Below, in pieces: positions 16,555 through 61,965 of a stretch of 64,000 nucleotides of DNA (its first letter is position 1; the number at the start of each line of letters is the position of its first letter). Below the pieces are notes generated by a model that was not told where the DNA came from, did not search any database, and saw nothing but the letters and a program-made list of their open reading frames with translations. The stretch comes from Schmidtea polychroa (lineage: Eukaryota), in contig CM097885.1 of assembly GCA_044892525.1 (NCBI GenBank), forward strand, positions 26,972,001 to 27,036,000, in the 5' to 3' direction. The translations under genes and the position numbers were made by a program.

Positions 16555-16567
16555 ACAAAGATGAAGT

Positions 16568-16969
16568 ATGGAGTAAGTTGAAGTATGGAGTAAGTTTACT
16601 TTCTAATAAACGATTTACTTGATTAGTTCTGTTCAGCTTAATTGTATTGCAACAAATCTGTTTGGAGACAGGTTTTTAGGAGTTTATCCGCTGGATAAAA
16701 TCCCTTTTCTTGAAAGTAACAATGCTTTAATAGTCAATACCCAATCATCAAGTCTCGATGGCGAACATTGGCTAGCAGTATTTGTTAAACCTGAAAAGAT
16801 TAAAGTGTTTGATCCGATGGGTTACTATTATCCGCCTCTGTTAGTGTCGAAGTTGTCGAAATTATCAAAACCTATCGTGTACAATAGAATTCGTTATCAA
16901 GAACCGCTAACAGTTACATGTGGACAACATTGTATTGTTTGGTTATGTTTTGAGTTTAATAAATATTAG
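16568..16969 (+). CDS. Adenain-type maturation cysteine protease; probable micro-exon ATGGA plus intron (16573-16626, or 16590-16626)
   Basis: Catalytic motifs GEHW, FDPMG and Q...TCGQHC; no in-frame ATG unless spliced, which gives MDSVQLN. Confidence 0.88.
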
Positions 16970-17114
16970 TTGGTGTTCATTTCTTTATTTTCAAAAATAA
17001 CTAAAATAACACAGTTTTTGTACAATATTTTATTAAATAACAATAACAACTCTTTATATACATAAAAAATAGAATGTCTGTTTGAGGAAATTTGACAGTT
17101 GATTTCACATATAA

Positions 17115-20100
17115 TCATGCAAATATATTATCATCATTATCAACAATATTTATACTATAGTGTCCATATGCAAAACTTTTGTTCCGACCCACCCATACCC
17201 TTTTATCATCCTTATTTGACAGAGCCAAATTTGTTGATTTAAATGTGTAAAGTTGATGATTTTTGGACCCAAGCCTCGTTTGTATGACTTTAGGTATTTC
17301 CATTCCATTAAAACAGTCGATGGATGATTGATGATCTATCTCAGTTTCATTCAATCTAATACCTTTGGCTTTAATAGTTTTCTTTGGACCACCCAACAAA
17401 CTATAAAGCTTTGGCCGAAGAAATATCCATTCATCATATAGGACTCCCTTACTTTCATCCTTAAACTTTCCTATAACAGAATCTAATCTTCTGTTATACA
17501 GCGGATGAGACGAATTATAATTAGATGCATCCAATAGATTATCTTGGATCATAGCTTCTAATAATGTTTGCAATTTAAGATTCTTAATTTCCAAGAAGAA
17601 CGAATCCGTATCCCCTGCTGCTATATTAATCTCACAATTGAACTGTTCACGATACTTTTGTAGTTCTATATACTGCAGCTCATACATTCTTAGTTTGGAG
17701 AGATCTAAAACTGTTTGTCCAATATACGAAGGTCTATCCAAACATACAACATCAGGGTTCATAATTGCAGCTATTAAATCATCTGCAATCTTTATACTTC
17801 TCTTGAAGGTTGGTTTTGATGAATATGTTACCATTTTTCTTTGTGAATTGCACAACCTTAAATTCATCCTCTTCTTTAAATTTTCCACTGTTTTCCCATA
17901 TAAACTGTTGTTTAATAGTTTATAATATCCCTTCTCCAGTTCAGATGTTGATTGAGCCCTCAATTTGGTGTTGGCTTCCACATATTCCTTGAAAATAGTT
18001 GATTGGTTAAACTTGATTGCCCGATGTATATTTGTTACTTCAACTCCTAAAAACATATACATTTTCAATAGTCGCCAATGAATTACATAGTTTTTCTTCG
18101 GGTAATGTGTTAACAGAAGCTTTTCCACTTTTGTTCCTTCTGGACACATCTTCTCTGGTGCAACAGGTAAATCGTCTAATAAATCATGAATTTCATCTGG
18201 AATATTCATATCAACCTCCAACGTATATCCATATGGTAAATTCTCTAGGTTTGATGATTTACACTCTTCTAGAATAGTGTCCAAATCAGTATGGATCCAT
18301 TCAAACTTTCCATATGGCAAACTCTGACTAAGTGCCCATCCATACAAGTTATTTATATCGATATATAATAACTCTGTATTTTCATCTCTTCTGACTTGAT
18401 GTTTATTAACGAAAGTCATACCTCCTCGAATGCCAGCTTCATAATAATTATACATTTCATTATCTTGCAACAATTCAATAGGTCTATCCAATGACATTAA
18501 TGCCGATGCCCATGTCATTCCCGGAATACTGAAAAAATTTAAAGGTTCCAATCCATTATGGGCTAGTGATTTAGTTCTGAATTGTTGAAAGTAATCTGCT
18601 AAAAGATATACATCCAACTTTAGATATATCATCATATAGTCTAAAAGGGTTTCACATCCGGTTTCAGACCATATGTTCACTGCTTTATCATATGCGGCTT
18701 GTGACACTCCTTCCCAAATTGGTGGCAATTCTCTGGTTTCTCATAGAACTTCCAGGCTTGTGGCAAAATTGTATGGAAAAATACCTTTTGAATCCTGTAT
18801 TGTTCCCGTAAATGCTGCATTTGTAATTGGTAAACTGTTTATTGTTTTTACTGCATTATCCAAAGATTCATTTACAAACTGATATGAATCAATGAATTTG
18901 ATCTTTATTTGCTTACAATGCGCAATAAGCGTAAGAAATTTTTCGGATGTTGTCGGAATACAACTCAAATTCCAGTGAGGGAATTTATTTATGCCATATT
19001 TTAAAATATGATGCATATCATAACCTCTCCGGTTATGAAATACTACTGGAAGCACTCGACGTACTCTTCTTGAAAGATTACATTTTCCACATGCCGCACC
19101 TAAATATTTCCCGCTGAAATGATCATGATCTCGAACCAAATGATCACAGTGTTCCTTACATATATAACAAAATGATTGCATATTAAAAGAGGATTGTTCC
19201 GTTGGACTGAGAATTAAAGGTTGTTTACCATTTCTCTGGTAATAATGATTTACTTTATTTTCTGCTATTTCCTCTACTTTCTTTAAAAAATCAAATATAC
19301 AATTTAACCCAATAAATTGAAAATATGAGGAAGCTCCGCTAAAATTGTTTATCAGCAAAAGTCCAGCTGAAATCGGTAAGTGTTTCTGATGGTATTGCTG
19401 ATCGTCTGGTAAAATAGATTCGAAATCAGCATAGATTACGAAAGGTGGAGTCACTTTCTTCGACCAATCTTTGAATCTGAGCTCTTTTTCTGTTGGCATA
19501 ACGTACAAAGTTGTCCCAAGCTGATTTTTCTTACATAAAGCCAGATGTCTTTCATATGTCAATTGTCTCCGAAATCCATTTAGACAATTTACACACCATA
19601 TACATTGAATTCGAACTGTACAATTATTGGATACATGACAGTTCATTAACCTGTTGATATTAGGTATTCCAACGTAATGGTAATTATTACTTTCACTTAG
19701 TAATAATAAATATATTGGTGTAACATCTTTAACCTTTGTCCTCCTAATTATGTCTATATTCGGATGTTTCATAACAACATCATCATCATTATTTAAATAT
19801 GTATCATCCGACTCGTATGAGAGAACATTGATCGCCAATCCTGGATTCTGATCTTCAAATTTCTTTATGTCATTCAATGTTGTCGGAGGGTTTTCCGAAT
19901 CGTAATTTACTTCATTCATGTACCGATAATATTGTGACGGTCTGTTACGGTTTTCATGAATGTCTTCGTATTTCAATATAGACAAAACGCTGTAGATAAA
20001 ACACAGATTGTCTTGATTTTGGATGTTTATAATTTTATTCTTTAATGATGCCGGGGTTCTTATATGTCGATGTCCAGACAATCGACTAATTTCGGCAAAC

Positions 20101-21276
20101 TTTGTTATTTTAAAATTAATCTCCAGTATCCTGTTAAGACGCCAACTGCTACCCAACTCCGATCTAATAGCAATTTTCTCATTCAAACTTTCGATTCCTT
20201 CATCTAAAAAGTCATCTGTTAATTTTGTGGCTCTGTTTGAAATTCTTGCAGTCTTCAGCTCACCGTCTTTGACGAATTCTGCATTGATCCCGAACTGTAT
20301 CTTAACGCTCTTCATTTCATTTATACAAGCGTTTAATTTTATCAGCAACCTTGGTGGAATAACTATTTTTTGTATATTATAACAAGATATGTCCAGTGTG
20401 ATAATTCTATGTGTTCTGTATAAATCACATTCAATTTCCGGTTCATCTGATATTCCTGCTCCTGTTTGAAAGTCATCAACTAGTGAGTAGTGATCTGCAT
20501 AGTCAGTACTATCACTGTCAACATTCGATATATTTTCGTTTTGATCATTGAAATCTAGTTCTTCTATTATTTCAAACGATCCATTATATCAATTTCTTCT
20601 TCTTCAGATCTTCCAACGTCTTCGCGCCTTGAACTTCCAGCTTCTTCGCGCCTTGAACTTCCAGCTTCTTCGCGCCTTGAACTTCCAGCTTCTTCACGCC
20701 TTGAAGTTCCAGCGTCTTCACGCCTTGAACTTTCAGCTTCTTCATGCCTCGAATCTTCTTCCTCGAATCCATGATTTCAATTATTTCTGAGTTTGCATTT
20801 TCTATTTTCTCCAATCTTGCTTTTTTATTTTTAATTAAGTGAGTGGAAACCTTTCTTTTGATAAGCTTATCTTCAGGCCTTGAACTTCCAACTTCTTCAC
20901 GCCTTAAACTTCCTGCTTCGTTGCGCCTTGAACTTCCAGTTTCTTCATGCCTCGAATCTTCTTCCTCCGAATCCATGATTACAATTATTTCTGAGTTCGA
21001 TATTGTATTTTCTATTTTCTCCAATCTTGCTTTCTTATTTTTAATTAAGTGAGTGGAAACCTTTCTTTTGAAAAGCTTATCTTTACGCATCACAAATTGA
21101 TTTAAATGTGTCTTATGCGTGTTATAAAAGGACATGTAGGGATCGGAACTTAAAGTTTCGCAATATGGGCATAAAAAGTAATTTTGTTGATAATATGTTT
21201 TGCCATAATATGTTTGCATGATTTTATGGCAGCTTTTATTGTGACTACTGTTTTGACAATAATTTGGGTATAACAC
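17115..21276 (-). pseudogene. polB: Protein-primed family B DNA polymerase polyprotein; in-frame stop at 18741-18743 and apparent frameshifts at about 20580 and 20765
   Basis: ExoI YADFES, EndoVII-like RDHDH...ACGKCNL, ExoII HN..GYD, ExoIII YLKLDV, motif A YIDINNLYG, motif B KLLNNSLYGK, motif C DTDS; the two track ORFs are in the same frame. The N-terminal extent (20349-21276) is less certain. Confidence 0.92.
20610..21082 (-). repeat. 24-bp coding tandem repeat (EEAGSSRR) plus a larger segmental duplication in the pPolB N-terminal region
   Basis: CTTCTTCGCGCCTTGAACTTCCAG units; the KLxKRKVSTHLIKNKKARLEKIEN block occurs twice. Confidence 0.9.
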
Positions 21277-22057
21277 ACCTTAAAATAAATAATGATTTAA
21301 ATATTTATTAAATGAATTTTATTTTATTAAAATAATTCGGGTTTCCCTTTTGTGTTCCATATATTTTGAGAAAAAAGTTTTATAATCACAAACAATGTGT
21401 AGTTTATTTTATTCAAGTGTAAGACATCCGACAAAAAACCATTACTTTATAAGTTAAAAATGCTAAAGGTAAACGGATGCATTTGTAAACAGTTTCTATG
21501 TATTGACTATTTTTTTAGTCAACAGAGGTGATTATGATTTCATACCTTATGTTTACGTGAATACAGATTTCTGTGACCAAGCTATTATGCAAGTGATGTG
21601 ATTTCCAGTGTACCATGGAAAGTATGCAATAAAGCTAGATCAATAATATTGTATTCTTATTGGTACATAAAGAATTCTTTGCGTCTCCTATAGAGTATTG
21701 ATGATAGCAAAAACAATAACTTGTAATGTTTATACTATTTTAATAATATTAAAAATAAATTAAAATTATTATAAAATTTATTAAAAAAATATTAATGTTG
21801 TTTAGTTTAATATTATAAATAAGACGATACAATTGACATTTTTACCGTTTTTGTCATTTTTACCATTTGATATTTTTTTTTTAAACAAACATTATTTATG
21901 TTTAAATTTGTTTAAATATAATATTAATTATATTTTAAAAAGACACCCAATGGAGAAAATCTCAAAGAAAATCTCAAATTCACAAAGATTTGTATCTATT
22001 TTTTCAATTTTAATTTATTAAAAATATATATATATAAAATAATAATCCTTAATTAAA

Positions 22058-24208: not shown

Positions 24209-24401
24209 TATCTTATGTTATTTTTATTAAATAAATGTTTCTGTTTAAAAATCGTGTTGTTATGATATCATAATTTGGTTGTCATAATAATATTTAAAAT
24301 TTAAAATAATCAATATAATTACCTAGAGTTATCCATTATTTTCAATAATATTAGTAAATATTAATTACCGTGGACGGGTTTCATTAAAAGTTATACAAAA
24401 T

Positions 24402-24797
24402 ATGAATTTTCCTTATGGTAAACCTCAGCAAATAATAGATAAAACTGATAATTATACAATTATATTCTTCAAGACAGGGAAATGTCGAATAATGGGTTGC
24501 AAAAAACCTATTGAAAGCATACATTATAATATTAAAGATGTTCATCTTCAATCTTGTACAATTACTATTGATATCAAACAACTAATTAATTTGCAATATT
24601 TGTCAAAGAAAACAAAATGTGTATATGAACCAGAAATATTCCCGGGTTTGCGTCTCATATCTTATAACCCCTTGTGTGTAAACTTGTTTTCTAGTGGAAA
24701 AATAGTTGTACTTGGTTTAAAAACTCTAAATTATAATTGGATTGTCAACAAAATTATAAATGATGTAAATGATTTGATTGGTTCACAAAAACTATAA
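24402..24797 (+). CDS. TATA-binding protein (TBP)-like protein; frame open upstream to about 24327
   Basis: Two TBP repeats: IIFFKTGKCRIMGCK and YEPEIFPGL...VNLFSSGKIVVLGLK; upstream in-frame LVNINYRG resembles the first strand. Confidence 0.88.
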   Translation: MNFPYGKPQQIIDKTDNYTIIFFKTGKCRIMGCKKPIESIHYNIKDVHLQSCTITIDIKQLINLQYLSKKTKCVYEPEIFPGLRLISYNPLCVNLFSSGKIVVLGLKTLNYNWIVNKIINDVNDLIGSQKL

Positions 24798-32311: not shown

Positions 32312-32628
32312 TGTTAGAAGCTATAACATTTAATTCTTCGGTCATCAAAATAAATTACTAAGACTATTAAATCCAAAATTATATTTCATTAAATCTGATT
32401 ATATAAACAAATATTCTTGGGACATTTTCTAAATTTTAATTTCAACCAAATATCAACATACCATCGCATTCATACTTGAATTTCAATTTTATTAAAAATT
32501 ATTTTATTTTAAAATTTCAATTATCATTTCAATTTTAATATCTTAAAATAATTTAAGTTTCAATTAAAACTTTACAAATTTTAATCATGAACTAATTTAA
32601 TTTAGTATTTTAATTTTAACTCCTCACA
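32312..32628 (-). repeat. 3' LTR
   Basis: Direct repeat of 37056-37372 with one substitution seen. Confidence 0.97.
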
Positions 32629-35600
32629 TCCCCTTTTTTTAAAATGTTTGATCTTCTCAACATTTCTGACTACCATCTTCCCATTTTGATCTTTAAGTAA
32701 GTAGCTCCGTTCATGTATTTTCTTTATCACTTTGTACGGCCCTTCCCACCTTGCATCGTCTTTATTTCGAATTTCTTGTTTGATCAAGACCACATCTTCT
32801 ATTTCAAAATCTCTCACTGTTTTGCTTATTTTTGGTTTTAGTGTTTTATCCTCTATTCTCTTTTCCATATCTTCTCTATTTATTTCTTTATTCGAGTACC
32901 ATTTCATTCTGTCGATTTTCCTCCCAAATATAATCTCTGCTGGGCTTACTCCCGTTGTTTTTTGAACTGTTGCATTTAACGTATATTCTATTTCTGGCAC
33001 TATATCAGCCCAGTTTTTCCTTCCTCCTTCATTCAATGACGCGTTAATATACTCTCTGATTGTTCTGAATTGTCTTTCAATAATACCATTCGTGTTATGG
33101 TGATATGGGCTTGAGAAAATTAATTCAATGCCAGCTGCCTTTGCTAGTTCTTTTATACTTCTTGCTTCAAAGTTCTTCCCACAATCTACATGAAGTTCTT
33201 TTGGAGCTCCAAACTTTAATATCCATTTATTTAATAACGTCTCACTAATTGTTTTTTCGTCTTGCTTGTTTATGGCCGTTAATGAGATGTATTTACTATA
33301 GTGGTCAATGATTCCGCAAATATATTTCTTTTTGTTGAACGTTTCTTTCAATGGCCCACATATATCCATATATATCTTCTCGAATGGTTCTGTACTCTTT
33401 ATTGTTTGAGTTTCCTCCTTTGTCTTGGTTGTTATCGTTTTCATTTTCTGACATCTTTCGCAGTTCTCAATTACCTTTTTTACTTCCGTTGCTAAATTTT
33501 CCATGTCGCAGTTATTCTGGATATATTTTGTTACTTTCTGTGCACCTGCATGGCACAGCAATACGTGTACTTCTTTTATCATCCTCTGTCTATTATCTGA
33601 CGGTATCCATATTTTACCTTGCTTAGTTAGTACCGTGTTGTTTTCCATTATGAACTTACAATCTTTATTTTCTAACTTATTCTTTATTTCTTGGACCTCC
33701 ATATTGTCATTTTGCCACTTGTTATATCCGCCTTCTGCTGTTACTGTTACTATTCTGGTTTTAATTTTGCCGGTTTTTGCGTCTTCGTGTTCCATCATAC
33801 ACTGTACACATGTTCCGCATGTTTTCCTGGATAGCATATCCGCGTTTGTATGGCTTGTTCCTTTCCTGTATTTCATTTTAATATCCAGGCTGCTTAAATA
33901 GTTGATCCATGTCTGGAATTGAGCAGTTATTGGTTTCTTCGTTGTTACCATAAACGTAATAGCTTTATGGTCCGTTCTCAGTACGAATCTCTTACCATAT
34001 AAGTAATGGTTGAAATGTTTACAAAAATAGTATATTGCCAATAATTCTTTTCTGGTAATGCAGTATCCTTTTTCGTGGCTGCTCATCGCATGTGAACCAT
34101 ATGCAATGACATGTTCATGTCCTTTTTCATCCTTTTGCGAAAGAACTGCTCCAATAGTATCGAAGCTCGCGTCTGTGTCTAATATAAATTCTTTTCTGAA
34201 ATCTGGAAATACCAATACTGGGGCGGTTATCAATGCTTCTTTCATTTCCCTGAAAGCCTTTTCACACATCTCTGTCCATCTTATTTTCTCATTGTTTTTT
34301 CCGCATATGCTTTCTAGTGCTCTTGCCTTCTTTGCATAGTCTTTTATGAACCGTCGATAATAGTTACAGATACCCAGAAAGCTCCTCAGATTCTTCACAC
34401 ATTTTGGTTTTTGAAATGATTGTATTGCTTCTATCTTAGTATTATCTGTTTGTATGCCGTCTTTATTTATTATGTGTCCCAGAAACTTCACTTCTTTTCT
34501 AAATATTTGACATTTTTCGGGGTTCAATCTTAGTCCTGCTGTTGCGATCTTCCCTAGGACTTTTCCAAATATGTTATAATGGTCTTCTTCTGTCTTTGTG
34601 AATATTAGGATGTCGTCTAAATATACCATCACTCCATCTTTCCACAAATCTTTCAATACTTTCGTCATTAATTCTTGAAATGTTCCTGGTGCCGCTGCAA
34701 TACCGAACGGCATCCTGTTAAAACAGAACTGTCCTTCTTTTGTTGAGAATGCTGTTTTCTCTTGAGATTCTTTATCTAACTTCACTTGGTAATAAGCATT
34801 TCCCAAGTCGATTGAGCTAAAATATCTGGATCCGTGTAGGATGTCTAAAATTTCATCTACATTTGGCATTGGAAATGCTTGTCTTTCTGTTATCTTGTTT
34901 AATTGTCTGAAGTCTAGACAAAGCCTGATGTCTTTTTTCTCTTTCTTCCATACACAAACTAAAGGTGTGTTCCACGGTGAATTACACTTCCTAATTATTC
35001 CGTTGTTTTCTAGATTTTTTATTGCTTCCTCAATCTTGTTTTCCAAATTTATTGGCTGACGTCTCGGTTTAATCATTATTGGCTCTCCTTTCGTGATGAT
35101 CTTATGTTTTATCAGATTGGTACACCCAATGTCCCATTTATCTGCCATAAAAACATTCTTGTTTGCCTGAAATATTTCTAGCAGTCTCTTATTTCCGGTA
35201 ACTTTTAAAACGTCGATGGCATGACGTAATCTTTCTTCATCTGTTATAATCCGCCCAAATCTAGCTTCTATTTCGCAAATGAAATCACTACGTTTTCCAT
35301 GTTCTTCTAGTATACATTTCAATTCTATACCAAATAACCTTTGTAGTTCTACTCCTCCAATAATTTCTGGTATTAAATTCTTTACTATAATGAATGTTAC
35401 ATTTCTTTCAATACTGCCCATTTTAACATTGATGTTTATTTTACCCATAGTTTCTAATCTACTGTTGTTTGCACATCTTAGCGATTCCCTTGTTTCTAAT
35501 ATTTCGATATTTTCTAATCGATCAATTACAGATTTAGCCATCACATTAATTCGCGCTCCTGTATCCAATAAACAATCTACTTTCCGCCCTTGGATATCCA

Positions 35601-35946
35601 GTGTTGTACTCGGTCTACCTTGCATTATATTATATGTTATTACTGGACTTTTTTGTTCTTCTACTGACAAAATATTCTGCTCTCTAGTATCTTCTACAAT
35701 TTCATTAATACACATGTCTCCATTTTTCTTGAGGAATTTGTAAATTTTCTCTATAGTTCTTTCCTCGTGTTTTACTAATTCATTTACTTTACACTCCTCT
35801 TTAAATTTTTTCTGAATTTCCTTATCATTCGACTTTTTAATTTCTACACTACTATTATTATTAATATCACGTTCAAAAACACTACAATCTTTATCAATCA
35901 TACAATCATCATACATACTTAAATTACACATACCGTTAGCATTCAT
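32602..35946 (-). CDS. pol: Pol polyprotein (protease, RT, RNase H, integrase)
   Basis: LLDTGA, YLDD, LDTDAS, H-H-C-C zinc finger, YMDICG/HVDCG/IERQF triad, GPY motif; uninterrupted. Confidence 0.97.
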   Translation of the reverse strand: MNANGMCNLSMYDDCMIDKDCSVFERDINNNSSVEIKKSNDKEIQKKFKEECKVNELVKHEERTIEKIYKFLKKNGDMCINEIVEDTREQNILSVEEQKSPVITYNIMQGRPSTTLDIQGRKVDCLLDTGARINVMAKSVIDRLENIEILETRESLRCANNSRLETMGKININVKMGSIERNVTFIIVKNLIPEIIGGVELQRLFGIELKCILEEHGKRSDFICEIEARFGRIITDEERLRHAIDVLKVTGNKRLLEIFQANKNVFMADKWDIGCTNLIKHKIITKGEPIMIKPRRQPINLENKIEEAIKNLENNGIIRKCNSPWNTPLVCVWKKEKKDIRLCLDFRQLNKITERQAFPMPNVDEILDILHGSRYFSSIDLGNAYYQVKLDKESQEKTAFSTKEGQFCFNRMPFGIAAAPGTFQELMTKVLKDLWKDGVMVYLDDILIFTKTEEDHYNIFGKVLGKIATAGLRLNPEKCQIFRKEVKFLGHIINKDGIQTDNTKIEAIQSFQKPKCVKNLRSFLGICNYYRRFIKDYAKKARALESICGKNNEKIRWTEMCEKAFREMKEALITAPVLVFPDFRKEFILDTDASFDTIGAVLSQKDEKGHEHVIAYGSHAMSSHEKGYCITRKELLAIYYFCKHFNHYLYGKRFVLRTDHKAITFMVTTKKPITAQFQTWINYLSSLDIKMKYRKGTSHTNADMLSRKTCGTCVQCMMEHEDAKTGKIKTRIVTVTAEGGYNKWQNDNMEVQEIKNKLENKDCKFIMENNTVLTKQGKIWIPSDNRQRMIKEVHVLLCHAGAQKVTKYIQNNCDMENLATEVKKVIENCERCQKMKTITTKTKEETQTIKSTEPFEKIYMDICGPLKETFNKKKYICGIIDHYSKYISLTAINKQDEKTISETLLNKWILKFGAPKELHVDCGKNFEARSIKELAKAAGIELIFSSPYHHNTNGIIERQFRTIREYINASLNEGGRKNWADIVPEIEYTLNATVQKTTGVSPAEIIFGRKIDRMKWYSNKEINREDMEKRIEDKTLKPKISKTVRDFEIEDVVLIKQEIRNKDDARWEGPYKVIKKIHERSYLLKDQNGKMVVRNVEKIKHFKKRGCEELKLKY

Positions 35947-35969
35947 TCTTTGGTTAAAATCAATATTAC

Positions 35970-37056
35970 TTAGTAAATTGCTCCGATCAATGTCCCGTTT
36001 GACGGAGCGTGCTCGTTTGGGTCATTCTCCCTGTTATACTCGTCTGGCTGGCTTGACTGTTTTGTATTCATCATCTCATCATCAGACTCGATAGCTGCAA
36101 TATCTTTTCTGTTATATTGTTGGTTTCCCCATTGTCTTTGATGTACGTTCCTTGATTGATACATATCGTCCCTTTGTTGATAGGTATTTCTTTGAATTCT
36201 TCCTCCTGACATCTTCCTTTGGTCTCGATCTCTTCCTTGATTTCGTCTTTCCATATTTGTGTAGCACTCTCTTTCTTTGTGTCCTCGTGCATTGCATCTA
36301 TGACATTTGATTGTTGGGCATTCTCTTCGTATGTGACCTTCAACACCACATGCATAACATTGAAATCTTCTTTTTATATTACATTCTCTGCTACTGTGTC
36401 CCGGTTTTTGACACGTCCAGCATTCTATCACTTTAACTCTTGTCTCTGGTTTCCATTCGTTGATTTCTCTCTTCGTGGCTCCAACTTGTACTACATCTCT
36501 ATAAGTTCTTCCCCCAGTTGTAGGTCGTATTGATCTCACCGTGTTTACTTGTTCAATAACCTTGTTAACTTTTTCTATCTTCTTTATAGTTTCTTTAATT
36601 TGTTCCGCCGTTTTGAGATCTTTCATTTCGATTTCTTTCCTGACTTCTTTATCTCTTACACAATGTGTCAATAAACATTTCTGAATTTCTTCCTCATTCC
36701 AAGTGTGTGAGGCCAATTTTTTAGTCATTTTTGATATTTTCTCTATAAATATTTCCGCTGATTCGTTACCTTGCTCGTAGTTCAAGGCTTCTCTTAAGTC
36801 ATCAATCAATGACGTTGGTCGATGAAAAGCTGCTCTTAATTTCTGTTCAACGGTTTTACCTTCTGTGGTTTCATATTCTTCAATCAAAGTCCTGTCCAGA
36901 AGTGTAATAACTAGTACCATTTGGGTCTTCACTGGTGTCTTCGCTTTTTTCAAAGAACCTCTGACATTCTTTGATAAATAATTCGAGGTCATCTCCTCTG
37001 TGGAATTTTTCTGGAAGTAATCTTCCAATAAGCAGATCCGTTGGAATGGTCGCCAT
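35970..37056 (-). CDS. gag: Gag with three CCHC zinc knuckles; frameshift in an A-run at about 36945-36950
   Basis: CWTCQKPGHSSREC, CYACGVEGHIRREC, CHRCNARGHKEREC; the N-terminus MATIPTD...ECQRFFE is in a different frame. Confidence 0.9.
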
Positions 37057-37372
37057 GTTAGAAGCTATAACATTTAATTCTTCGGTCATCAAAATAAATT
37101 ACTAAGACTATTAAATCCAAAATTATATTTCATTAAATCTGATTATATAAACAAATATTCTTGGGACATTTTCTAAATTTTAATTTCAACCAAATATCAA
37201 CATACCATCGCATTCATACTTGAATTTTAATTTTATTAAAAATTATTTTATTTTAAAATTTCAATTATCATTTCAATTTTAATATCTTAAAATAATTTAA
37301 GTTTCAATTAAAACTTTACAAATTTTAATCATGAACTAATTTAATTTAGTATTTTAATTTTAACTCCTCACA
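37056..37372 (-). repeat. 5' LTR
   Basis: Adjacent to the PBS; direct repeat of 32312-32628. Confidence 0.97.
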
Positions 37373-38085
37373 ATAATAATGTCGAGTTGTTACAAATATG
37401 TTAGAGTTGGGCCAACAGAGATTGGCGGAAAATGACATAATATGATGAATAAATAAAAATAGCAATTTTACAATTGCTAAAAATACAATATGATGGGCTG
37501 GAACCCGAGATAACCTAAATTTTCTATAAATTTGAACTTTCCATAAAGTAATTAAATGAAACCCTGTATTAACATAAATTGAGGTAGTCAGACAAATGTA
37601 AGGAAAAATAAAGAATGAGAGAAAGAAAAATAATAGAATAAAACAAAAATCACCAAAATAAAATAAATAATAAATAATTCGCAAACAGACAAACAACATA
37701 TAACCATAACTAATGTTGGGCTGAGAACTAAGACAAAAAATTAAAAGCATGAAATAATGTAAATAAGCAAAAAAGACAAAAACAATAAGAAACGACAAAA
37801 AGTACCACCAAAATCAAATAACAAATTAAAATAAATATATAATAAGAATATTAATTGAATAAAATATAAAAAAAACAAAAAAAAACAGAATTAAAACAAT
37901 AAATTTAAAGAAGCAAAAACATTAAATAAGGATAATAATAGGAAAGCGACACCAAAAATATGCAATTAATATAAAAATTTATAGAGAAAATTAATACAAT
38001 TTTAAGAGAAAACTTAAAAGACGAGTAAAATTACAAAAAATACATAAATTTTAATTAAATTAATTAATTTTGCGATACCTCGATT

Positions 38086-38223
38086 CTGATTGGTCCGCAA
38101 ATTCCACAATAGACTATATAAACTAGACATTGAAACAAAAATTTTAATGTCAAAATACCAAACATTTAGGTAAGATGAGTTACAATATTTTTATAATTTA
38201 ATATCAAAATACCAACCATTTAG
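38086..38223 (+). promoter_or_regulatory. CCAAT/TATA promoter with short first exon and 54-nt intron (38170-38223)
   Basis: CTGATTGG, TATAAA at about 38117, AG|GTAAG and TTTAG|. Confidence 0.65.
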
Positions 38224-38801
38224 GTCAACTACAAAACATTTAGCACTACGACAATTCACTTTACTCAAGGACTAAAATTACACGTTCCAGCTCACAAAAC
38301 TCGAAAACCAGACGCAGTTATTCATTATAAAGCCTTTAGAGAAAGATTTTGGTAAAATTTAATTTTTATCTATATTTCATTTTTGTATGTAACGTATTCT
38401 AACTACTAAATTAATGAAGGAATGGTTCGTGTTCCTTTTCCTTTTTTCATTTTTAATATCTGTAATACTTTTAATATTTTTTTTAAAAAGTTTCACATTT
38501 TATATTTAGTATTTTAATAAAGCTTTTCATTGAAATTAACTATGTTTTGATTTTTTTCGTAATATCGTACTTAAAATAATTATTAATAAATAAGAATGAT
38601 TTTTAATATGAACATTTGGCAGATAATTTATTCGCACACTCATCAGGCCATACTAGAGGTGAACCGAACAACAGTCGTCTCGTTACTATCAAAAATTTAA
38701 CCCGATAAAGACGTGAGAGTAAACGCGAACCAACAGTAACTAATTCACTCAACCTTATCTGTAATTAAGAAAAATAGCTAAAAAACAACACGACTTAGTC
38801 C

Positions 38802-38919
38802 TGATTGGACGAAAATTAGTATATAAGACGACCGTTAAGTTAGTTAAGTAATTACTCTAACTTCACTACAGGTAAAGTTTTTCAATTATTAACAATTAAT
38901 TACTCTAACTTTACTACAG
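38802..38919 (+). promoter_or_regulatory. CCAAT/TATA promoter with short first exon and 48-nt intron (38872-38919)
   Basis: CTGATTGG, TATATAAG, CAG|GTAAAG and CTAAC...TACAG|. Confidence 0.65.
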
Positions 38920-39953
38920 GACTAACTTCAGTACAGCAACTTTAACTACTAATAATCATCAGGAACTCATAGAACGACTAATTTTAGCAAACATTTTACA
39001 GATTCATTTAGCAACGATTTAGAATAGAAACTACTTTATCGCAAGTTATTACGGGACAATATTAGATTCAGGAACTTTAGCTATTGAAACCATTTCAAAG
39101 ATCCGTATATTCAGTTCAGTTTAACAGTTCGAGCAAAGCCGTTAAAGAACCAAGTAAAGATTTTGATTATTGATGATTTTATCTTTATTATTTTAATTTT
39201 TACGAGTGAATTCTAATAGTAAATTATCATGAATGTATAAATTTTCATTAAACAAAATATTATATTTATTAGCACACTTGTCTTTTCTATTCACGGAACT
39301 GGCGACGGTGCCGTTTGAAATCTCTGGATATGATGCCAATGAACCGAGGACACGAGAATTATAATTCGAATAGTTTCGAAGACATGTAGTTGGATCCTAT
39401 AGATAAAATGATTGGAAGGAAGATTCTATTATGTCAATGAGGAATCATCAGAAGAATTCAATATGAGCATTGTTGGAAAATGAACTGCGTTAGTAAAGTC
39501 CCATGTCGTGCATCATACTCAGAAACCAAAGGACATGGTCGCCAGGTAAATTTGATATTGGTGGGTTACAGGTCGTCTAATTTCTACCTACTCGCGCTGT
39601 TTCCAGCGTAACCCAGAATACAATGAAACCGTTGACCGCTTGACACCCGTTGAGCAATCAACGTTGGTACTGTGTCAAGGGTTAGGGTACTAGCAAAAGG
39701 TGAGCATGCTTAACATACTATAATTGTCTAGCACCCTCTGGGGTTCACGGACTGCCGATAGAACGCTTATGACCGATTTCTCTAGGTCCCCGTTATGACA
39801 ATTGACGTTTTCGAATAATCGGAATACACGAACGCTAACATAACAACAATGATTTTTTATTTGAGATCACCCCTTTATATGACGAGTTCATGAGGCTCTG
39901 GTAGACTCCTTCGGGGTAGTCGATTGAATTGGTGTTTGTACCAGGCTGGCCTG

Positions 39954-40276
39954 TCATCCGGGTAGCATCCTAGGGTACCCGTCGATGTCCTCCAGGTCGC
40001 CGGCTAGGGTTGCATCCTCGAGCCGTTGTAGTTGATCCACAGCTGCCTTTCCATCTTCGAAGGCTTCGACCAGAGCTAGGGAGGTGGCGTTGACGAAGGG
40101 ATCACCGGGACCACATTCTGGTAGGTCCAGTCGTGAATCTTGTACCAGATCCACCTTGACCTTAGTCGGGTGACTTCTCCATCTCGGTCCGGATTGGTGG
40201 AGTCTTCTGCCTCCTCGTGGCTCGGGTCGGTTGGTGAGGGACCGGCCTGTGCATTTCTTTGTCTAGTGTTGGGCAT
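39954..40276 (-). pseudogene. Small acidic/disordered ORF (MPNTRQRNAQAGPS...) with a frameshift near 40160
   Basis: GC-rich coding-like island; acceptor TTTTATCACAG directly before the ATG; two overlapping track ORFs. Confidence 0.45.
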
Positions 40277-40832
40277 GCCTGTGATAAAATAACATTAAGG
40301 TACTTCCTAACGAGCCTTTTGATCACCAATTCTGGTTTTATAAAGCAAATCTTAAATTCCGACTCGACCTTAGGATTAAACTTAAAGACACGGTCTTCGT
40401 CTTTTAACTTGAGAAGTATATATTGGCCAAACCAAGCTGAGGGCATAATTTTATATCTTGGCTCCAAACTTTAACTTAATGAAACTTAACTACAGCGAAA
40501 TCTTTATGCTCTGTTGGGCTGAGTCGGAAAATCAATTTGGGAAATTAGGAAAATAAAATAAGCAAGAGGCTAAAGAAAAACAAAATAAAATAAAACAAAT
40601 TACGAATAAAATATAAGAAAAACAATAATTAGGAAATAAGAATTAAAACAAAAATAAAAATAGAAAATTAAAATAGGACAATGGAAAAACGGATAAAATA
40701 ACGTAAAATTCAATAAATAATAAGGAAATTAAAGAAATAAATAGAAAATATAATAAAAATAAAGAAAATAGGAAGAAATAACCAAAAACAAGAAAAATAA
40801 ATTAAAGCAACAAAATTAAGCGGTACTCAATT

Positions 40833-40960
40833 CTGATTGGTCCGCACACACAGAAAATTAATATATAAACACGCACAAAAATCATAAAATTACTGTTAAT
40901 CTAAACATTCTACAGGTAAGAGTACTTTTAAATAATACTGTTAATCTAAACATTCTACAG
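40833..40960 (+). promoter_or_regulatory. CCAAT/TATA promoter with ~25-nt first exon and 45-nt intron (40916-40960)
   Basis: CTGATTGGTCCGCA (shared with 38086), TATAAA at about 40864, CAG|GTAAGA and TCTACAG|. Confidence 0.7.
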
Positions 40961-42826
40961 ACCTACAATAACCGACAAGGATAATCAACAATCAAAATCA
41001 TTTTCTAGGAGCATTCAGAGATCGAAATCGAGACAACTAATTACTGAGAAAGTACCGAATCTATTTCCGACTCAGCCTACAACACTACAAGTGATACGTA
41101 AGCAGATTTTTGTTTGAAAGTATTAGTAATCATGAGATGTTCGTAAAAGTAAAATTAAATGAATTATGATTTTCTTTTCGGTTGATCCCTATTAATATTT
41201 TCATATAATTTTAATGATTAAATAAATGGTTTTAATGATAAATGCGTTGTTTTAGATATATTTATGAATTAGTCGGAAAGTCTATAATTTTATGATTGTG
41301 CATTTTATGAGAAACGTGGAGTTGAGACGTTTCATGTCATGGTGTGAGGGGCCTTCGGGAGCTCAGCCGGTGGACATGAAACGTTTCAATCACGCAGCTG
41401 ACTTGGGCCGAAAAGTGGGGGCTTCCTCACGGGTCCGTCGCTGAAGGTTCCTAACTTAGTTGAAACAGTGGACTATAGATATATGAGAGATTTCAATTAG
41501 AAAATTTAGCTACGTTCATGATTCACAGTGATTTGAGGCGGCCACCACCAATTTTTCGTATCTGGAAAACTGTTATCCACCATAAGTCTGATTCGTAGCA
41601 CTAGTTCAGGCGACCGTAATCTATAAATCCGAGTTCGTCAACCCTCATCACATCTTGGTATTCAACCATCTACTTGATTCTTCCAAAAAATCATCTTAAT
41701 TCGAGAATTTTACTTCAATACCTGATAACTATCTGACGGGGTATCATAAACAACTTATACACGAAAAAGCAAAACACAAGACTTCCAATATAACCACACT
41801 TTATTTTTGAAAACGCTGGTTAACCAAAATATAGTACTTACAAAATGTTTCCGAAAATTAGCCGTCGGAGTAAGATTCATGGTCATCTTTTAGATAAGTA
41901 ATCCGATTCCCTGTCGTAGAATATATCCCACATTAGGGAAAGCCTCGTAATCATAAATCCACATTCTGCAGGTGAAAGCGAGTAAACGGAGGGGAACTGA
42001 CAAACACATAATTTTTCCGATATTGTCACCCGGTAAAATCTCATCCAACTACCCATGTGTGAATGCGAAATGCAATTGATATCGACAGTAGATACAGATA
42101 AGCATCCATGAGAATAGCACAGGACTACCAGCTTATCATGATCAGCGAGAGCATTTGTTGTAATATGTGTGCGACATGAATTATTAGATAGACAGCAGCC
42201 GGTGAGTAGGATCGATAACTATCACCGTGCAGTACACCGAACCGACCAATAAATCACTGACTTTTATCTGGTGCGAAAGTGTCTCGTGGCGCTGATAATG
42301 AGTAACAAATTAATCCGCTAGTCGACTTGGGGTCAACTCTCCACTGCAAACTATTTTTGTAATGTTCACGTTTTTAGACCACCATAATAATAAATAAACT
42401 GCCCTGCGTATATTTAAATCCTCGGCATGAAAGATATTAAATGGGAGGAGGAAATGCCTGTTGGGGGAATAATTCGTCTCGAATTATGTTAACTATAATA
42501 GTCTTGGGTCGAGGTCTAAATAATGAAGTGAGGGTTTAGGGAGGAATTCGGTGTGTGTTGAATTTAGTAATAGCATAATTGTCACCATGATCCCGGATTT
42601 TGCATTTGTCAATACAATCGTGCCTAACTATGTAAATAAAATTATGTAATAAATCTAGCAGTAACAAATTAATTACCTGAGATTGTAAATTTCTTACTAG
42701 TCAGTGTGGTCTCCTTGTTTTGTTGTAAGTATCAAATATGAATAAATAATCTGTAGGGTGGAGTGATGTCTTCATAAATGCCGTATATTTGTATAAAAAT
42801 TTTCTTCACTTTTCTATCTAACTGTC

Positions 42827-43576
42827 ATGCTACCGAATAATCGACCCGCATTACGTCCTTGTTTCTCCTGCGCCGATAAAAACTCTATTATCAAGGATCT
42901 GCAGGCCCAGATCGGTCGATACAAGAAGAAGATCGACGAACTGGAATGCACATGGTTCAGCCCAGTGCAAATGAAGGAGGTTCGAAAGAAATTATATCGC
43001 AGTGAGCATTGTCGGGATGCCCTGATTTCTGAGAGCCGTTCCCAACGGAGCTTGATAAAGGAGCAATCTGAAGCGCTCCACAAAGTATATTTACAAGCAG
43101 CAACTACGAGGCAATTAGTCAGTATACCCATTCACGAAGCGGACAATGTTTTCCCGATACATCACGACACCTCGTTTAAGTCGTCACCTCCGGCCAAGAA
43201 GTCTTGTCGGGAATGTGTTGAAGCCGACCTCTCCCCCAGGCATCCAGATATCGTTTTCCCCAAGATCGGTAAGGTGCCAATCGCCGGTACCTCTACCTCG
43301 GCGGTACCTCCGATTAGTCAGGTGGCACCAAAACCCAAGCGACGGCAATTGTCGAGAGCCGATCGCAAGAGAAAACAGCGAGAGCGCGCGGCCGCCAAGC
43401 ACAACGAACAGCCAGCGGAGAATCCTATTAGTGTTCAGCACCCTCCGACGACAATTGATCTGACCATCGGGGTCCCAGGGCGAATTATCTCCGCCGCTGG
43501 AGTGACCTGGGAGGAAAATGCCTCCGAATTCTTTGATTTGGAAGAGTTGTTGGCCGACACTGAGTGGGAAAAATGA
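42827..43576 (+). CDS. Element-encoded 249-aa protein: CxxC, coiled coil, basic NLS-like segment, acidic tail
   Basis: Intact GC-rich ORF with two clear paralogues in the window (PCFSCxDKN...FSPxQMKE...EHCRD...SEALHKVY). Confidence 0.85.
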   Translation: MLPNNRPALRPCFSCADKNSIIKDLQAQIGRYKKKIDELECTWFSPVQMKEVRKKLYRSEHCRDALISESRSQRSLIKEQSEALHKVYLQAATTRQLVSIPIHEADNVFPIHHDTSFKSSPPAKKSCRECVEADLSPRHPDIVFPKIGKVPIAGTSTSAVPPISQVAPKPKRRQLSRADRKRKQRERAAAKHNEQPAENPISVQHPPTTIDLTIGVPGRIISAAGVTWEENASEFFDLEELLADTEWEK

Positions 43577-45524
43577 GAATCCTCTGTCCGTTCAACCCGC
43601 TTCGAAAGACGAATATCAATGTTTCTTTTCTTATTTTCTCATCATTCATGTATAACTGTGCGGTGTAAATTATCAACGTTTTATCCCATCGTGAGGAAAT
43701 AAATCATGTTTGTTGCTAATGTTCTTATTATATTTTTTGTGTAAAGTTTATGACATAGATTTTAGTTATTCTAATCAATATCAGTGAAAATCTTTATAGG
43801 ATCTATAAGTGTCTTCTAAGGCCGGGTTGTTGGTTTGAACGAACGGTCTGATGATATGAGTAGACGTAAGTCCTTCTATCGGCAGTCAAGGGAAGGAAGT
43901 CGAGGCCTCAGTAAGGAGTAGTCCAAAGGTAGGGGCTCACCTGCTTACTGGCGTCTCGCCGACATAGTGCATTACCAACGTGAAGTAATTCACGGGTACT
44001 ATGCTGGAATATAAGTTGTGCGGGGTACCGCTCGGAGTTACAAAGGGAATGGATAAAACAGACAAAGTAGACCATCATCTCCTAGGCAAAAAGTGAAATT
44101 GTAGAGGTGAGTCCGAGTAGTGCCCCAGCAGCTCATTCACTTTAAAATTCAGATTAAAGAAAAATATTTTCGACCCTAATCTAATTTTACAAATTAAGGA
44201 GGAAAAATCCAACTCGTCATATACTTTAAACCTTAATTGAAAGTCAGATTTCTTATTTTTCGAATTTCTTAATTTATGATATTGTTTTAGTTCGCTACTT
44301 AATTAAAAAAATATTTTATGTCAACATGTTACTATTTAAAATTCTCTTTTTTAAATATTAATGGCTTTCCACCGAAACCAATTGCAAGGTGTCGAACGGT
44401 AATGCTTGGAGCTTTGCACAAGCTACTTACCCTCTTCTACCAACAATTGTAGTAGGTGGAACTTTCGTCTTACCACATAAAAAGGTAAATTTTATTTGAT
44501 CTGCTACAAATTGAATTTTAGGTATTTGTTTTGGCTAGTGAATTTTACTAGTGGATTGATTAGTTGCGGAAATAATGCTGGGAATTCACGGGACGTCTCG
44601 ATTTGATAGTAGAATTGGTTGGTGGATACCTAACGTAATGGAGATGGATTTGTTCAGTTCATTCGTCATTTACATCATTCGACTTTCCTTTTTCCATTTC
44701 AATCGGTAAGTTTAATTTCAAGTCAAGAATTTTTAAATGCGATCGTACATGTCTAATTATAGGATATGGTATAGTTGCACAGGGAGCTAATGGGGAGATA
44801 AATGATGATCACAACTTTAGATTTAGACTCTTGGATATATCAGCAATTCTGTGTTGACTGAGGCTGTGATAATAATAAAAATTCCTGGTGTTATTATTTA
44901 TGGTGAATTATTGCCGATATGTGACGGTTGTATGTTAATTTCTGATTAAAAATTTTGCTCTGAGATGAAAATATAGGTTGACTGAAAATTATTTCAGGGT
45001 GATAATAATAGCTGTAATAATAATGATCACATCGATGGTCTACATCACGGATGATAATGAAATCGCGATAACCTCGACACTAACGGTGCTATTACTACCG
45101 GTAACAATAGTCGATATAACGGCAGGGGGAGTAATGGCAATTTCATAATTTATTATACATATTATTGAACTTGAGGTCTATACCATTGTCTCCTCTCATT
45201 ATATAACCAGGGAGGGGTGGCTTGGGTAATTTTAGATTATGTATTTATCTATTTGATGTCTGCATATACATACTCACACACATACACCCACGTATGCACA
45301 CAGATATATAGGTATATATGTACATCATTACATTACTTTGGGGTGGGGGTTGTTACTAAAAATAGATTAGGGGGGTTTGGTAATTTTATTGGGGAATAGG
45401 ACTGTTGAAGTTAAATCTAGAGATAGGGGATTTCCAACATTAACACTTTGTTTATATTATTTTTATAAAATAAGATTATTTTAATAATATAATACCATTA
45501 GTGGGAGCGACTGAGTTAAAAGAA

Positions 45525-53401: not shown

Positions 53402-55027
53402 TAGGGCTTGCAATACCGATTTACCGGTTAACCGGTAAATTGCTAAAAAATTCATTACCGAAAAACCGGTAAATTCATTATTTTTTACCGGTTTTTTCGG
53501 TAAAAATTTAAACTTTATATTACACAATATTTATCGTTTTGTTCCGTTCCGTGCATACTATTTTATAAGTAAATAGTTGAATTTAATATTTAAAATTAAT
53601 AATTATACTATAATAAAGAAATTCGACTTTATTTATAAAGTAGTATGTACGGAACAAAACGAAAAATATTGTAAAATATAAAAAGTTTCACACTTCTGTT
53701 CAGTGGTCACAAGTCACACTCGCACCTAAGTAAATATAAAACAAATTTTTGTTTCTTGTTGTGTATGCAAATGCGTGAAATATTCATGCTTAATATTCTA
53801 TTATTCTATCATATATATGTTAAGTGCTCGCTCAAACCGTGTTAAGTGCTCGCTCAAACCGAAGTAGAAATTTTTTATTTGTTTGTAATATTCAAGTTAT
53901 ATACTGACAGAAACGAATGTTTTTCGTGGAATTTCGAAATATTGAACAATTTTAACTGTTAAAATTGAAATACATAAATTGTTGCAGTATATAATTTATA
54001 AAAAATATATCAATTTTTTTTAATATAATAGAACGTCTCATAAAATTTAATAAAGGTAAGGTAATACAAAAAATACTAATTTATTCGTTATTTAAAACCA
54101 AAAAATATTTTAGCCATCATGCGTTCAAATTTAATATGGACCTATTTCAAAGAAACAAATAAGAATGAAGCCGTCTGCAATAGTTGTGCGAAACCGATTA
54201 AATGTGTTGGTGGTAGCACTAGTGGTTTGCATGCCCATCTTAAATCTCAGCATAAAATTAATCTATTGAAGAGAAAAGATGACGAAAGTGATATGGCATC
54301 ATCTAGTCAAATTACAAACAAAGTCATCGCTAGCACTACAAACAATAATATATCAAATTTCTTTATAAAAAAGGTTGATGATTCACTTCCAGCTGTTCTC
54401 GCGCGTTTGACAGCAAAAGATAATATACCGTTTTATAGAGTTGCCACATCCTACGATATCCGAGTACTAATTAAAGCTAAATATAATAAAGAAGTACCAA
54501 GATCTTCCCATACGATCAAAAAAATTGTAATGGACTATGGGGATAAAATTCGCAAACAAGTGGTTGAAGATTTATCCAACCGAAAAGCTAATAATAGTGT
54601 ATTCAGTTTGACGTTTGACGAGTGGACGTCTGTTAAGAATCGACGATATATGAACATAAACGTTTCAGCAGCCGGTCTGATCTGCACCAAGTTGAGGTCG
54701 ATCTTAAATGATAACACGTTAAACACAATGTGTTTTTAAGGCAGTATTTTAATCAAAAACAAGAGTTGAAATGAAGTTTTAATTTTTTTCTAATTTGCGT
54801 TTATACTTTTTTTTATATATTATAATGTTATGATTATGAATTAATAAAATAAAAGAATGAATTAATAAAATAACTGACTTGAATTTTATAAAACATATTA
54901 TAAGTAATTAGTTTGAATAAAATATCAACTAACTAAAATACTCTCAAAATTACCGGTTTACCGGTTTTTTCCACATAAATTACCGAATTACCGGTAATTG
55001 AAAAAGTCGGTAAATTTGCAAGCCCTA
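53402..55027 (+). mobile_element. Internally deleted hAT transposon, 1626 bp
   Basis: TIR TAGGGCTTGCAA, perfect 8-bp TSD TTGGTGAT, subterminal ACCGGT repeats. Confidence 0.96.
54119..54739 (+). CDS. Truncated hAT transposase: BED finger and first catalytic Asp fused to the C-terminal tail
   Basis: IWTYF...CNSC...HLKSQH BED finger, LTFDEWT, then SAAGLICTKLRS typical of the hATC end. Confidence 0.85.
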   Translation: MRSNLIWTYFKETNKNEAVCNSCAKPIKCVGGSTSGLHAHLKSQHKINLLKRKDDESDMASSSQITNKVIASTTNNNISNFFIKKVDDSLPAVLARLTAKDNIPFYRVATSYDIRVLIKAKYNKEVPRSSHTIKKIVMDYGDKIRKQVVEDLSNRKANNSVFSLTFDEWTSVKNRRYMNINVSAAGLICTKLRSILNDNTLNTMCF

Positions 55028-60089: not shown

Positions 60090-60841
60090 TAAACAAAGAC
60101 ATATGACTCATCAAGGTCATTGAAACAAAGACCATGACTCATAGTATGACTCATCAAAATTGTCAAGGTCATTTAAACAAAGACCATGACTCATCCTATG
60201 ACTCATCAAGGTCATTTTCAAGGTCGTATGACTCATAATATGACTCATCAAGGTCAAAAAATTTTTTTCAAGGTCATTTAAACAAAGACCATGACTCATC
60301 AAGGTCATTTTCAAGGTCAAATGAGTCATACTATGACTCATATGACCTTGAAAATTTTTTTCAAGGTCGTATGACTCATAATATGACTCATCAAAATTTT
60401 CAAGGTCATTTAAACAAAGACCATGACTCATATTATGACTCATCAAGGTCATTTTCAAGGGCAAATGAGTCATAATATGACTCATATGACCTTGAAAAAT
60501 TTTTTTCAAGGTCATCTGACTCATCCTATGACTCATCAAGGTCATTTTCAAGGTCATATGAGTCATAGTATGAGTCATATGACCTTGAAAAAATTTCTCA
60601 AGGTCATATGACTCATATGACCTTGAAAAAATTTCTCAAGGTCATATGACTCATACTATGACTCATCGAAATTTTTTCAAGGTCATATGACTCATACCAT
60701 GACTCATCAAAAATTTTCAAGGTCATTTTCAAGGTCACCTGAGTCATCCTATGACTCATCAAGGTCATTTTCAAGGTCGCATGACTCATCCAAGGTCATT
60801 GCCAAGGTCATATGAGTCATCGCGATGACTCATCAAGGTCA
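60090..60841. promoter_or_regulatory. Array of AP-1-type (TGASTCA) and NR5A/ERR-type (YCAAGGTCA) sites in the Polinton terminal region
   Basis: About 30 and about 25 copies respectively, counted by eye, in both orientations. Confidence 0.7.
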
Positions 60842-61003
60842 TATTATTATTTTTAAAAATATTATTATTTTTATTATTATTTTTAAAAATATTATTATTT
60901 TATTTTTAATTTTTTCAAAGTTCCCGCCAACGAAAATTAATAATCGATAGCTCATTTTAAAGCTCAATCCAAGACCTTTCGAATGAGCTATATATCTTGT
61001 TAC

Positions 61004-61192: not shown

Positions 61193-61684
61193 CTAAATAT
61201 ATATAGTATGATATTCATTAATCAGTGTTGAACAGGCTTGACACTTCCGAACATTCTTCTCATGACACTTAGAACAAACAATTACGTGACCACACGGTAA
61301 ATACAAAACCGAAACTCGATTTTCTTTACAAATTGAACAAGTTAAATATCTTTTCTTAACATCTTTCAATTTTTTCGTTAGCTTATTTTCAATCAAATCG
61401 GCTTTCGCTATCCATTCATAAATCAATCTACTATATCCCGGTTTCAACCTTAAAAACATACAACTCCAAAAGTATTCATTCAGTGAATCGTTGTTTACTG
61501 CTATTTTTTCTAAGTACATTAAATAACAAGATAACTTTAAAATAGATTTCTCATAATTAAATAAATCAAACAAATATTCAATAGAGGAATGTTTGAAAAT
61601 TTTTAAAATATTTATGAGTTGCTTATCACTGTAAGTATCATGATTATTTATAAAATCTTCAAGTGTATTGTTAAAAAATGTCAA
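61193..61684 (-). CDS. IAP-type C-terminal RING finger protein (no BIR seen)
   Basis: CSICKENRVSVLYLPCGHVIVCSKC...CQAC...IYI at the extreme C-terminus. Confidence 0.85.
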   Translation of the reverse strand: MTFFNNTLEDFINNHDTYSDKQLINILKIFKHSSIEYLFDLFNYEKSILKLSCYLMYLEKIAVNNDSLNEYFWSCMFLRLKPGYSRLIYEWIAKADLIENKLTKKLKDVKKRYLTCSICKENRVSVLYLPCGHVIVCSKCHEKNVRKCQACSTLINEYHTIYI

Positions 61685-61965
61685 TGAAATTTCCGAATAG
61701 GCTGGACTTAATTTTTCCTTATTTCTAGTAGGACTTCCTTGCTATAAATGACATATAAAAAAAAATTGTCAAAATAATAAAGTTACCAAATGTGTTACAC
61801 ATTCATCGGTTTTATTTGTATAAATCATTATTAATAACTAAATTACTTTTGTTTTTTACATTTATAAAAATTGTGATAACCAATCAAAATAGAGCTTTCA
61901 AAATGTAACCATCAAATGTATAACAATAATAAGCATGACTAGTACCCTTTGCAACCTGTTTAAAG

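Follow-up and report, generated by a model that had tools for sequence, protein, structure and literature searches.

A short candidate intron in a planarian LTR ends in a copy of its own first exon and is probably rebuilt by strand transfer

According to textbook accounts, an LTR element loses any intron that is spliced out of its genomic RNA, and both R regions of this RNA are the same. We describe a planarian LTR module whose parts are each known from other systems: strand transfer, cap copying, short introns, the retained intron of Penelope-like elements and the spliced LTR transcripts of maize. In HIV-1, strong-stop cDNA lands on the 3′ R, and copying of the cap adds a G immediately 5′ of the copied segment; after minus-strand transfer this G lies directly upstream of the start site, and misaligned transfer gives small changes at the junction (PMC12172438). 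Penelope-like elements carry a short pseudo-LTR intron near the start site that is retained through retrotransposition and required for expression (PMC2377424). They differ from our module in their GIY-YIG endonuclease and tandem-derived pseudo-LTRs, and the available text describes neither an exon copy at the intron tail nor any rebuilding (PMC2377424). In maize, spliced transcripts arise inside the LTRs of young elements, but these are LTR-contained non-coding RNAs with long introns (mean 1,303 bp), and the part of the report available describes no mechanism of duplication or inheritance (10.64898/2026.05.08.723830). Intron gain by tandem genomic duplication also makes the exon end and the intron end direct repeats (PMC3265369, PMC4974935). 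Such duplication is a single event whose copies would be expected to drift apart, whereas in the module dozens of lineages show renewed similarity, with the predicted start site as its limit. Burro/GYPSM1, a giant Gypsy-like element of planarians, is about 30 kb long, with long LTRs, protease, RT, RNase H and integrase, and with ankyrin, MATH and RING domains; its env-like fusion domain precedes the protease, and an LTR intron is not mentioned in the available portion of that source (PMC6431247).

The module lies in a window of 64,000 nucleotides from Schmidtea polychroa (the whole stretch of DNA analysed), on contig C1. The assembly, which was the genome searched, totals 781 Mb, is AT-rich and includes four very large contigs. 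The initial annotation had reported a 25-mer at 40891–40915 that is followed by a donor and recurs at the acceptor end of a short intron; the 25-mer is found again exactly at 40936–40960, with GTAAG at 40916. A TATA box does precede it, although the claimed spacing of about 27 bp needs adjustment: TATATAA runs from 40862, its first T lying 29 nt upstream of the 25-mer. A40892 is the likely +1, so that exon 1 comprises 24 nt and the remaining base of the 25-mer is position −1. The layout recurs where it had been said to recur, in repeats at 38143–38169/38197–38223 and at 38849–38871/38897–38919. Calling those sites unrelated was an overstatement. CCAAT and TATA boxes occur with one common spacing at all three sites, and the LTRs at 37714 and 40512 have the same LTR start; the sites are thus diverged relatives, not three independent origins. 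The features are as follows.

40512..40891, + strand: putative U3, with an A-rich block, a CCAAT box (as GATTGG) near 40835 and TATATAA at 40862
40892..40915, + strand: repeat 1, candidate exon 1 of 24 nt, with an initiator-like A40892 as predicted start site, a branch-point-like TTAAT and a CAG end
40916..40960, + strand: candidate GT-AG intron of 45 nt (splicing predicted), consisting of the donor GTAAG, a unique spacer and repeat 2
40936, + strand: position −1 of repeat 2, the putative landing point of strong-stop cDNA; T in the window copy
40937..40960, + strand: repeat 2, the intron tail, an exact copy of exon 1 that would provide the branch point and acceptor AG
40961..41097, + strand: candidate exon 2, ending at a second donor GTAAG at 41098
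38146–38169 (exon 1) and 38170–38223 (intron), + strand: module in a sister LTR that starts at 37714; the LTR is diverged and disrupted, and the repeats differ at two positions
38850–38871 (exon 1) and 38872–38919 (intron), + strand: module in a more distant LTR-like fragment, with donor GTAAA and one mismatch

Three sites of this layout in 37500–42500 score at least 20, against none in 200 first-order Markov resamples of the stretch, and a module scan of the rest of the window returned only a ATGACTCAT-rich repeat array near 60.1–60.8 kb (60102–60845) and two weak matches. The same scan found no match in the 317-bp LTRs of a neighbouring compact Gypsy element (32312–37372, − strand), which are 99.7% alike and enclose gag and pol frames. 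Elsewhere the window holds Polinton/Maverick-like genes at 11706–21279 (packaging ATPase, integrase and protein-primed polymerase B, in split frames), a second polymerase-like stretch at 62828–64000, and frames at 24327–24797, 54080–54739 and 61193–61741 with TBP, BED zinc-finger and RING matches.

The window copy resides in a solo LTR. The unit spans 3,619 bp (40512–44130, + strand), has TG...CA ends and is flanked on either side by GCTC, a 4-bp target duplication. Genomic copies start at window positions 40512–40514 and stop at 44130, which sets the LTR bounds. A contig of run X2 joins 40507 directly to 44131 and represents the empty site of this solo LTR, so the insertion is absent from some chromosomes; the contigs of runs X1 and X2 are apparently DNA, with U3 and the far LTR end covered alike. 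The joints listed from the contig runs include none between 40915 and 40961, which counts neither for nor against splicing. Paired LTRs occur in a sister family that is about 85% alike to the window unit in U3, at distances of 23–26 kb. In one pair, L025 and L026, the LTRs are 100% identical across 1,179 bp, lie 25.7 kb apart and flank protease, RT, RNase H and integrase in that order (Pfam RVP, RVT_1, RT_RNaseH and Integrase_H2C2, in split frames). The interior of this pair also encodes an env-like fusion domain and ankyrin, MATH and RING domains, again in split frames. The target duplication, the domains between the LTR pair and the LTR ends bear out the earlier premise that these are LTRs of a reverse-transcribing group. 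The sister family fits the Burro description in its size near 30 kb and in its env-like, ankyrin, MATH and RING domains, a likeness by description rather than by sequence, and the window solo LTR appears to fit a Burro-like giant Ty3/Gypsy group. A Penelope-like identity was considered and rejected, as an integrase, RNase H, a tRNA primer site and a target duplication were found.

In the sister family, the primer site lies 7 nt past the end of the L025 LTR and is complementary to host tRNA-Pro(TGG); its complement was found in a genomic array that ARAGORN calls as tRNA-Pro(TGG). Self-priming from exon 1 is ruled out because the primer site matches tRNA-Pro. The tRNA-Pro(TGG) genes form a tandem array at C1:130901009–130952345 with a period of about 475 bp, and their pattern has 1,577 matches genome-wide. 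At the other end of the elements, the 30 nt upstream of the 3′ LTRs L023, L026, L028 and L029 share a common sequence with no clear purine run. The LTR of the window contains a 249-aa frame (42827–43579) that is conserved at the DNA level in sister families and returned no match in a Pfam search. It also contains a G+C-rich block at about 41303–41448, 84–88% conserved between families whose flanking sequence barely aligns, which is a candidate packaging or dimerisation element. Within this block, 41357–41370 is similar to the tRNA-Pro primer site.

The two repeats change in concert across the genome. A CCAAT-TATA-donor pattern gave 580 matches genome-wide, against 3 for a reversed control. We retrieved 80 of the 100 sites listed from these matches, skipping loci already known and near-duplicates, so that shared mismatches are undercounted. 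Such searches overlook degenerate copies, and also intron-less copies in which exon 2 starts with G. Among 111 loci chosen by promoter and donor motifs, and not by the repeat, 103 carry the repeat at a score of at least 16; the other eight include a mutated acceptor, deletions and an insertion. The 84 distinct loci contain 69 different exon-1 sequences that are on average 67% alike between loci. Within a locus, exon 1 and its own intron tail are 98.6% identical (exactly so in 61/84), and in 78 of the 84 the strictly nearest match of repeat 2 is its own repeat 1. Variants of repeat 1 are thereby mirrored in repeat 2, as had been anticipated. Exonic mismatch types number 23, and 22 of them occur at a single locus, the exception being a local duplicate. 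Since either LTR can mutate after insertion, single mismatches give no direction of copying, and we argue direction from marks at the edges of the repeats instead. The loci are related, so p-values overstate their independence and cluster counts are the fairer measure.

By sequence, the segment between the candidate exons has the hallmarks of a U2-type intron. It is 41–57 nt long in the 84 distinct loci, all of which have a branch-like A placed invariantly 17–18 nt upstream of the acceptor AG. The acceptor is TAG in 55/84, CAG in 21/84 and AAG in 8/84, the first two giving the YAG form. The GT donor was part of the search pattern and is therefore present by selection.

The left edge of the mirrored segment coincides with the predicted start site, as the initial annotation had required. 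The A at +1 is invariant and lies 31–33 nt from the first T of the TATA box in 83/83. Position −1 of repeat 1 is a pyrimidine in 84/84 and position −2 a T in 81/84, against 58/84 and 43/84 for the same positions of repeat 2. Identity between the repeats is 78–83/83 at each position from +1 to +20, then falls upstream to 50/83 at −1, 43/83 at −2 and 20–39/83 at −8 to −12; a −2 variant common to L025, L026, L028 and L029 is not mirrored in repeat 2. An identity edge at this place suggests that the copied segment starts where the RNA would start.

A G marks this edge at repeat 2 only. With an anchor picked without using the −1 base, a G directly precedes repeat 2 in 19 of 84 loci and repeat 1 in none of 84, while G makes up 5% of the spacer. 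The first upstream mismatch between the repeats is G in 30 cases, where 6.4 were expected; for the second mismatch, taken as a control, the figures are 9 and 6.5. The −1 G of repeat 2 occurs in 16 of 38 clusters and is variable within 9, which implies that it has been gained or lost repeatedly. The distant clade of the 38850 site has it in 4 of 15 loci against 0.6 expected, two of the four being close sisters and 6 of 21 loci, without donor or anchor, having been set aside. Extra partial exon-1 starts also occur at the left edge of repeat 2 (9/84, about 2 expected) and resemble the misaligned transfers of HIV-1 (PMC12172438). HIV-1 has R copies that are the same and its G at the U3–R junction (PMC12172438); in the module the putative U3–R junction lacks the G, which lies 45 nt further downstream, within the intron. 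The mark sits at the intron tail rather than at the promoter, which points to repeat 2 as the place of landing and to repeat 1 as the source of the copied sequence. Position 40936 is T in the window copy but G in L002, L003, L004 and L013, and G also in X1 and X2 contigs. Counting against a rebuilding model, −1 equals the base of repeat 1 in 50/83 loci, and some loci match up to −8; such matches and the window T would need variable start sites or cycles without cap copying.

The right edge coincides with the predicted splice junction. Mirroring is undiminished up to the AG, at 80–84/84 for each of the last 12 positions, and the 42 different hexamers found at −8 to −3 are mirrored in 77/84. Relative to their sisters, four of 88 loci (L072, L081, L095 and L102, of which L081 is a rearranged copy) have GTAA inserted between the acceptor and exon 2. 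We sought donor-prefix insertions of 1–8 nt in the 88 loci and found none of any length but 4 nt. The commonest alternative donor form is GYNNGY (PMC4267661), and at +5/+6 three of the four loci with a GTAA insertion carry GT or GC, L095 having GA today. The insertions look as if RNA spliced at a +4 donor had been written back into DNA, and they are the best indirect sign of splicing. Loci L105, L112, L113 and L117 differ from their sisters by 2–8 nt of extra sequence at the start of exon 2 that mostly repeats the acceptor end and is not donor-derived. These additions and the GA of L095 speak against reading the GTAA insertions as a sign of splicing. Exon 2 begins with G in 29/84 and with GTA in 22/84; a GT-initial exon 2 also fits an old tandem duplication.

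Sequences further into the LTR bear on its RNA. Exon 2 contains an inverted copy of the first 18 nt of the LTR (41064–41081), which pairs with 40512–40530 in a fold of 40512–41110. This inverted copy is clear, in 10 distinct forms, across the clade of the window copy, and weak or lacking in that of the 37714 LTR. Within one LTR, the stem can form only where U3 is transcribed, and it is a possible 3′-LTR-specific switch or genome circularisation signal. Around exon 1 itself, a fold of 40892–41110 revealed no strong structure. Two further features recur across families, a second donor (41098) about 205 nt past the start site and an AATAAA (41221) about 330–380 nt past it; together they form a candidate U1-controlled poly(A) site. 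Because splicing in the same RNA must leave this second donor unused, these elements plainly do retain introns.

Intron-less copies, which the initial annotation had suggested as a check, exist, and their loss of the intron is precise wherever a close sister allows comparison. Matched patterns returned 452 LTRs with the donor and 61 without it. We checked 20 of the 61: one is a donor mutant, and the other 19 lack the intron and have the repeat only once. LTR pairs, counted by eye, separate the two sets, the intron-bearing set being the 100 listed of 452. Same-strand pairs 22–32 kb apart include 0/61 donor-less and 20/100 listed intron-bearing LTRs (Fisher p = 4e-5), and pairs at wider spacing include 2/61 and 24/100 (p = 3e-4). 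As donor-less LTRs are missing from pairs, the intron seems to be lost mostly after insertion, and the 3′ R of the copied RNA would then nearly always keep it. Age differences between the two sets could add to this contrast.

On the DNA evidence, we consider it likely that the R-region intron is rebuilt by strand transfer at each retrotransposition. The initial annotation had proposed this reading, and the DNA-level tests came out as it predicted and support it. The G at −1 of repeat 2 and the GTAA insertions, which it had not anticipated, agree with these tests. RNA polymerase II would start at repeat 1 and the RNA would be capped. The cap-proximal intron would be removed from the 5′ R, and the copy in the predicted 3′ R would be left unspliced in the packaged RNA. 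Strong-stop cDNA, probably primed by host tRNA-Pro, would end in anti-exon 2 and then anti-exon 1, because the 5′ R is spliced where the 3′ R is not, and would sometimes carry an additional C copied from the cap. For such a cDNA, gap-free pairing with the 3′ R would be confined to exon 2 and the intron tail. The spacer, the donor, exon 1 and U3 would then be copied off the 3′ LTR by extension, so that transfer and extension together would make the intron tail of the new LTR a fresh copy of the parent's exon 1. Copying would run one way, from repeat 1 to repeat 2, between a left bound at the start site and a right bound at the splice junction. One-way copying would oblige exon 1 to be an initiator and also to carry a branch point and YAG. 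Escape of the 3′ copy from splicing might reflect a dependence of splicing on the nearby cap, competition from the internal repeat 1 acting as an acceptor, or the stem between LTR start and exon 2, which would be possible only in the 3′-LTR transcript. By analogy with Penelope-like elements (PMC2377424), the likely benefit is that the genomic RNA would gain export or expression from a spliced first intron and the intron would be kept.

Splicing could be dispensed with if reverse transcriptase jumped from repeat 2 to repeat 1 on unspliced RNA, the shortened strong-stop cDNA then landing on repeat 2 of the 3′ R. Short direct repeats are known to be deleted during reverse transcription (PMC12172438), and such jumps would also be expected to homogenise the repeats in part and to leave a cap G at repeat 2. 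They predict weaker mirroring at the 3′ end, however, where we see 80–84/84 at the last 12 positions and hexamers mirrored in 77/84; the branch-like A, the donor fixed at the repeat edge and the 4-nt length of the GTAA insertions are left unaccounted for, and we regard this route as unlikely. Homogenisation could equally act on DNA, with an AG|GT site duplicated in tandem, the copies kept alike by DNA conversion or re-duplication, and the genomic RNA unspliced at both ends. Intron gain by such duplication is documented (PMC3265369, PMC4974935), exon 2 starts with GTA in 22/84, and the precise losses look post-insertional (0/61 in LTR pairs), from which we conclude that DNA-level exchange between the repeats probably occurs. 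As a full account it is very unlikely, because it explains neither why the left edge falls at the start site nor why only repeat 2 has a G at −1, and because the repeats are 98.6% identical over 24 nt despite a 33% difference between families. A one-time duplication should show AG|GT at both junctions and independent decay, but exon 2 has its G in only 29/84 and the copies co-change. Tandem duplication may still be how the module first arose.

The edge G would be an ordinary cap copy if transcription started at repeat 2 and repeat 1 belonged to U3. Repeat 2 does have the same +1 to +24 sequence, and a cap G normally marks a start site (PMC12172438). We give this arrangement scant credence: the TATA box lies 31–33 nt from repeat 1 but about 75 nt from repeat 2, the −2 and −1 initiator bases are conserved at repeat 1 only (81 and 84/84 against 43 and 58/84), and it does not account for repeat 1 tracking repeat 2. 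Just as improbable, in our estimate, is a module whose intron is spliced in mRNAs only, with an unspliced packaged genome and repeats kept alike by selection for a pairing or binding role. That would be the textbook route for keeping introns, as in retroviruses, and maize has spliced LTR-contained transcripts (10.64898/2026.05.08.723830), yet under selection A-run lengths that look neutral would not be mirrored across 69 exon variants, and G and GTAA would not come to lie at opposite edges of repeat 2.

Rebuilding by strand transfer accordingly remains our preferred reading, and it lacks an obvious precedent in the literature we could reach. Our search returned no account of an LTR intron tail copied from exon 1; the original Burro description, Grohme 2018, and most subscription papers were beyond its reach. 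An apparent precedent, the "intron in the LTR1.20 leader" in the available text of PMC5542766, belongs to an engineered vector and is irrelevant, and the main text of PMC8532177 nowhere mentions splicing or introns. The module is a real feature of a known kind of element, and its proposed rewriting of the intron tail from exon 1 was not found in print.

If rebuilding by strand transfer is true, the module breaks both textbook rules, that of intron loss and that of identical R regions. It would provide a concrete way for a retroelement to keep a first intron, an instance of directional concerted evolution at a 24-nt scale, and possibly a way for introns to arise with an acceptor already built in. 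The window would present an animal case with both cap-G and GTAA marks, and genomic copies of the module would preserve traces of earlier start sites, of cap copying and of the use of alternative donors. We find it somewhat more probable than not that the module exemplifies a general class of self-renewing introns, in which the 5′ R is spliced and the 3′ R is not, strand transfer writes the exon back as an acceptor end, and choices of RNA start and splice site would become heritable changes in DNA.
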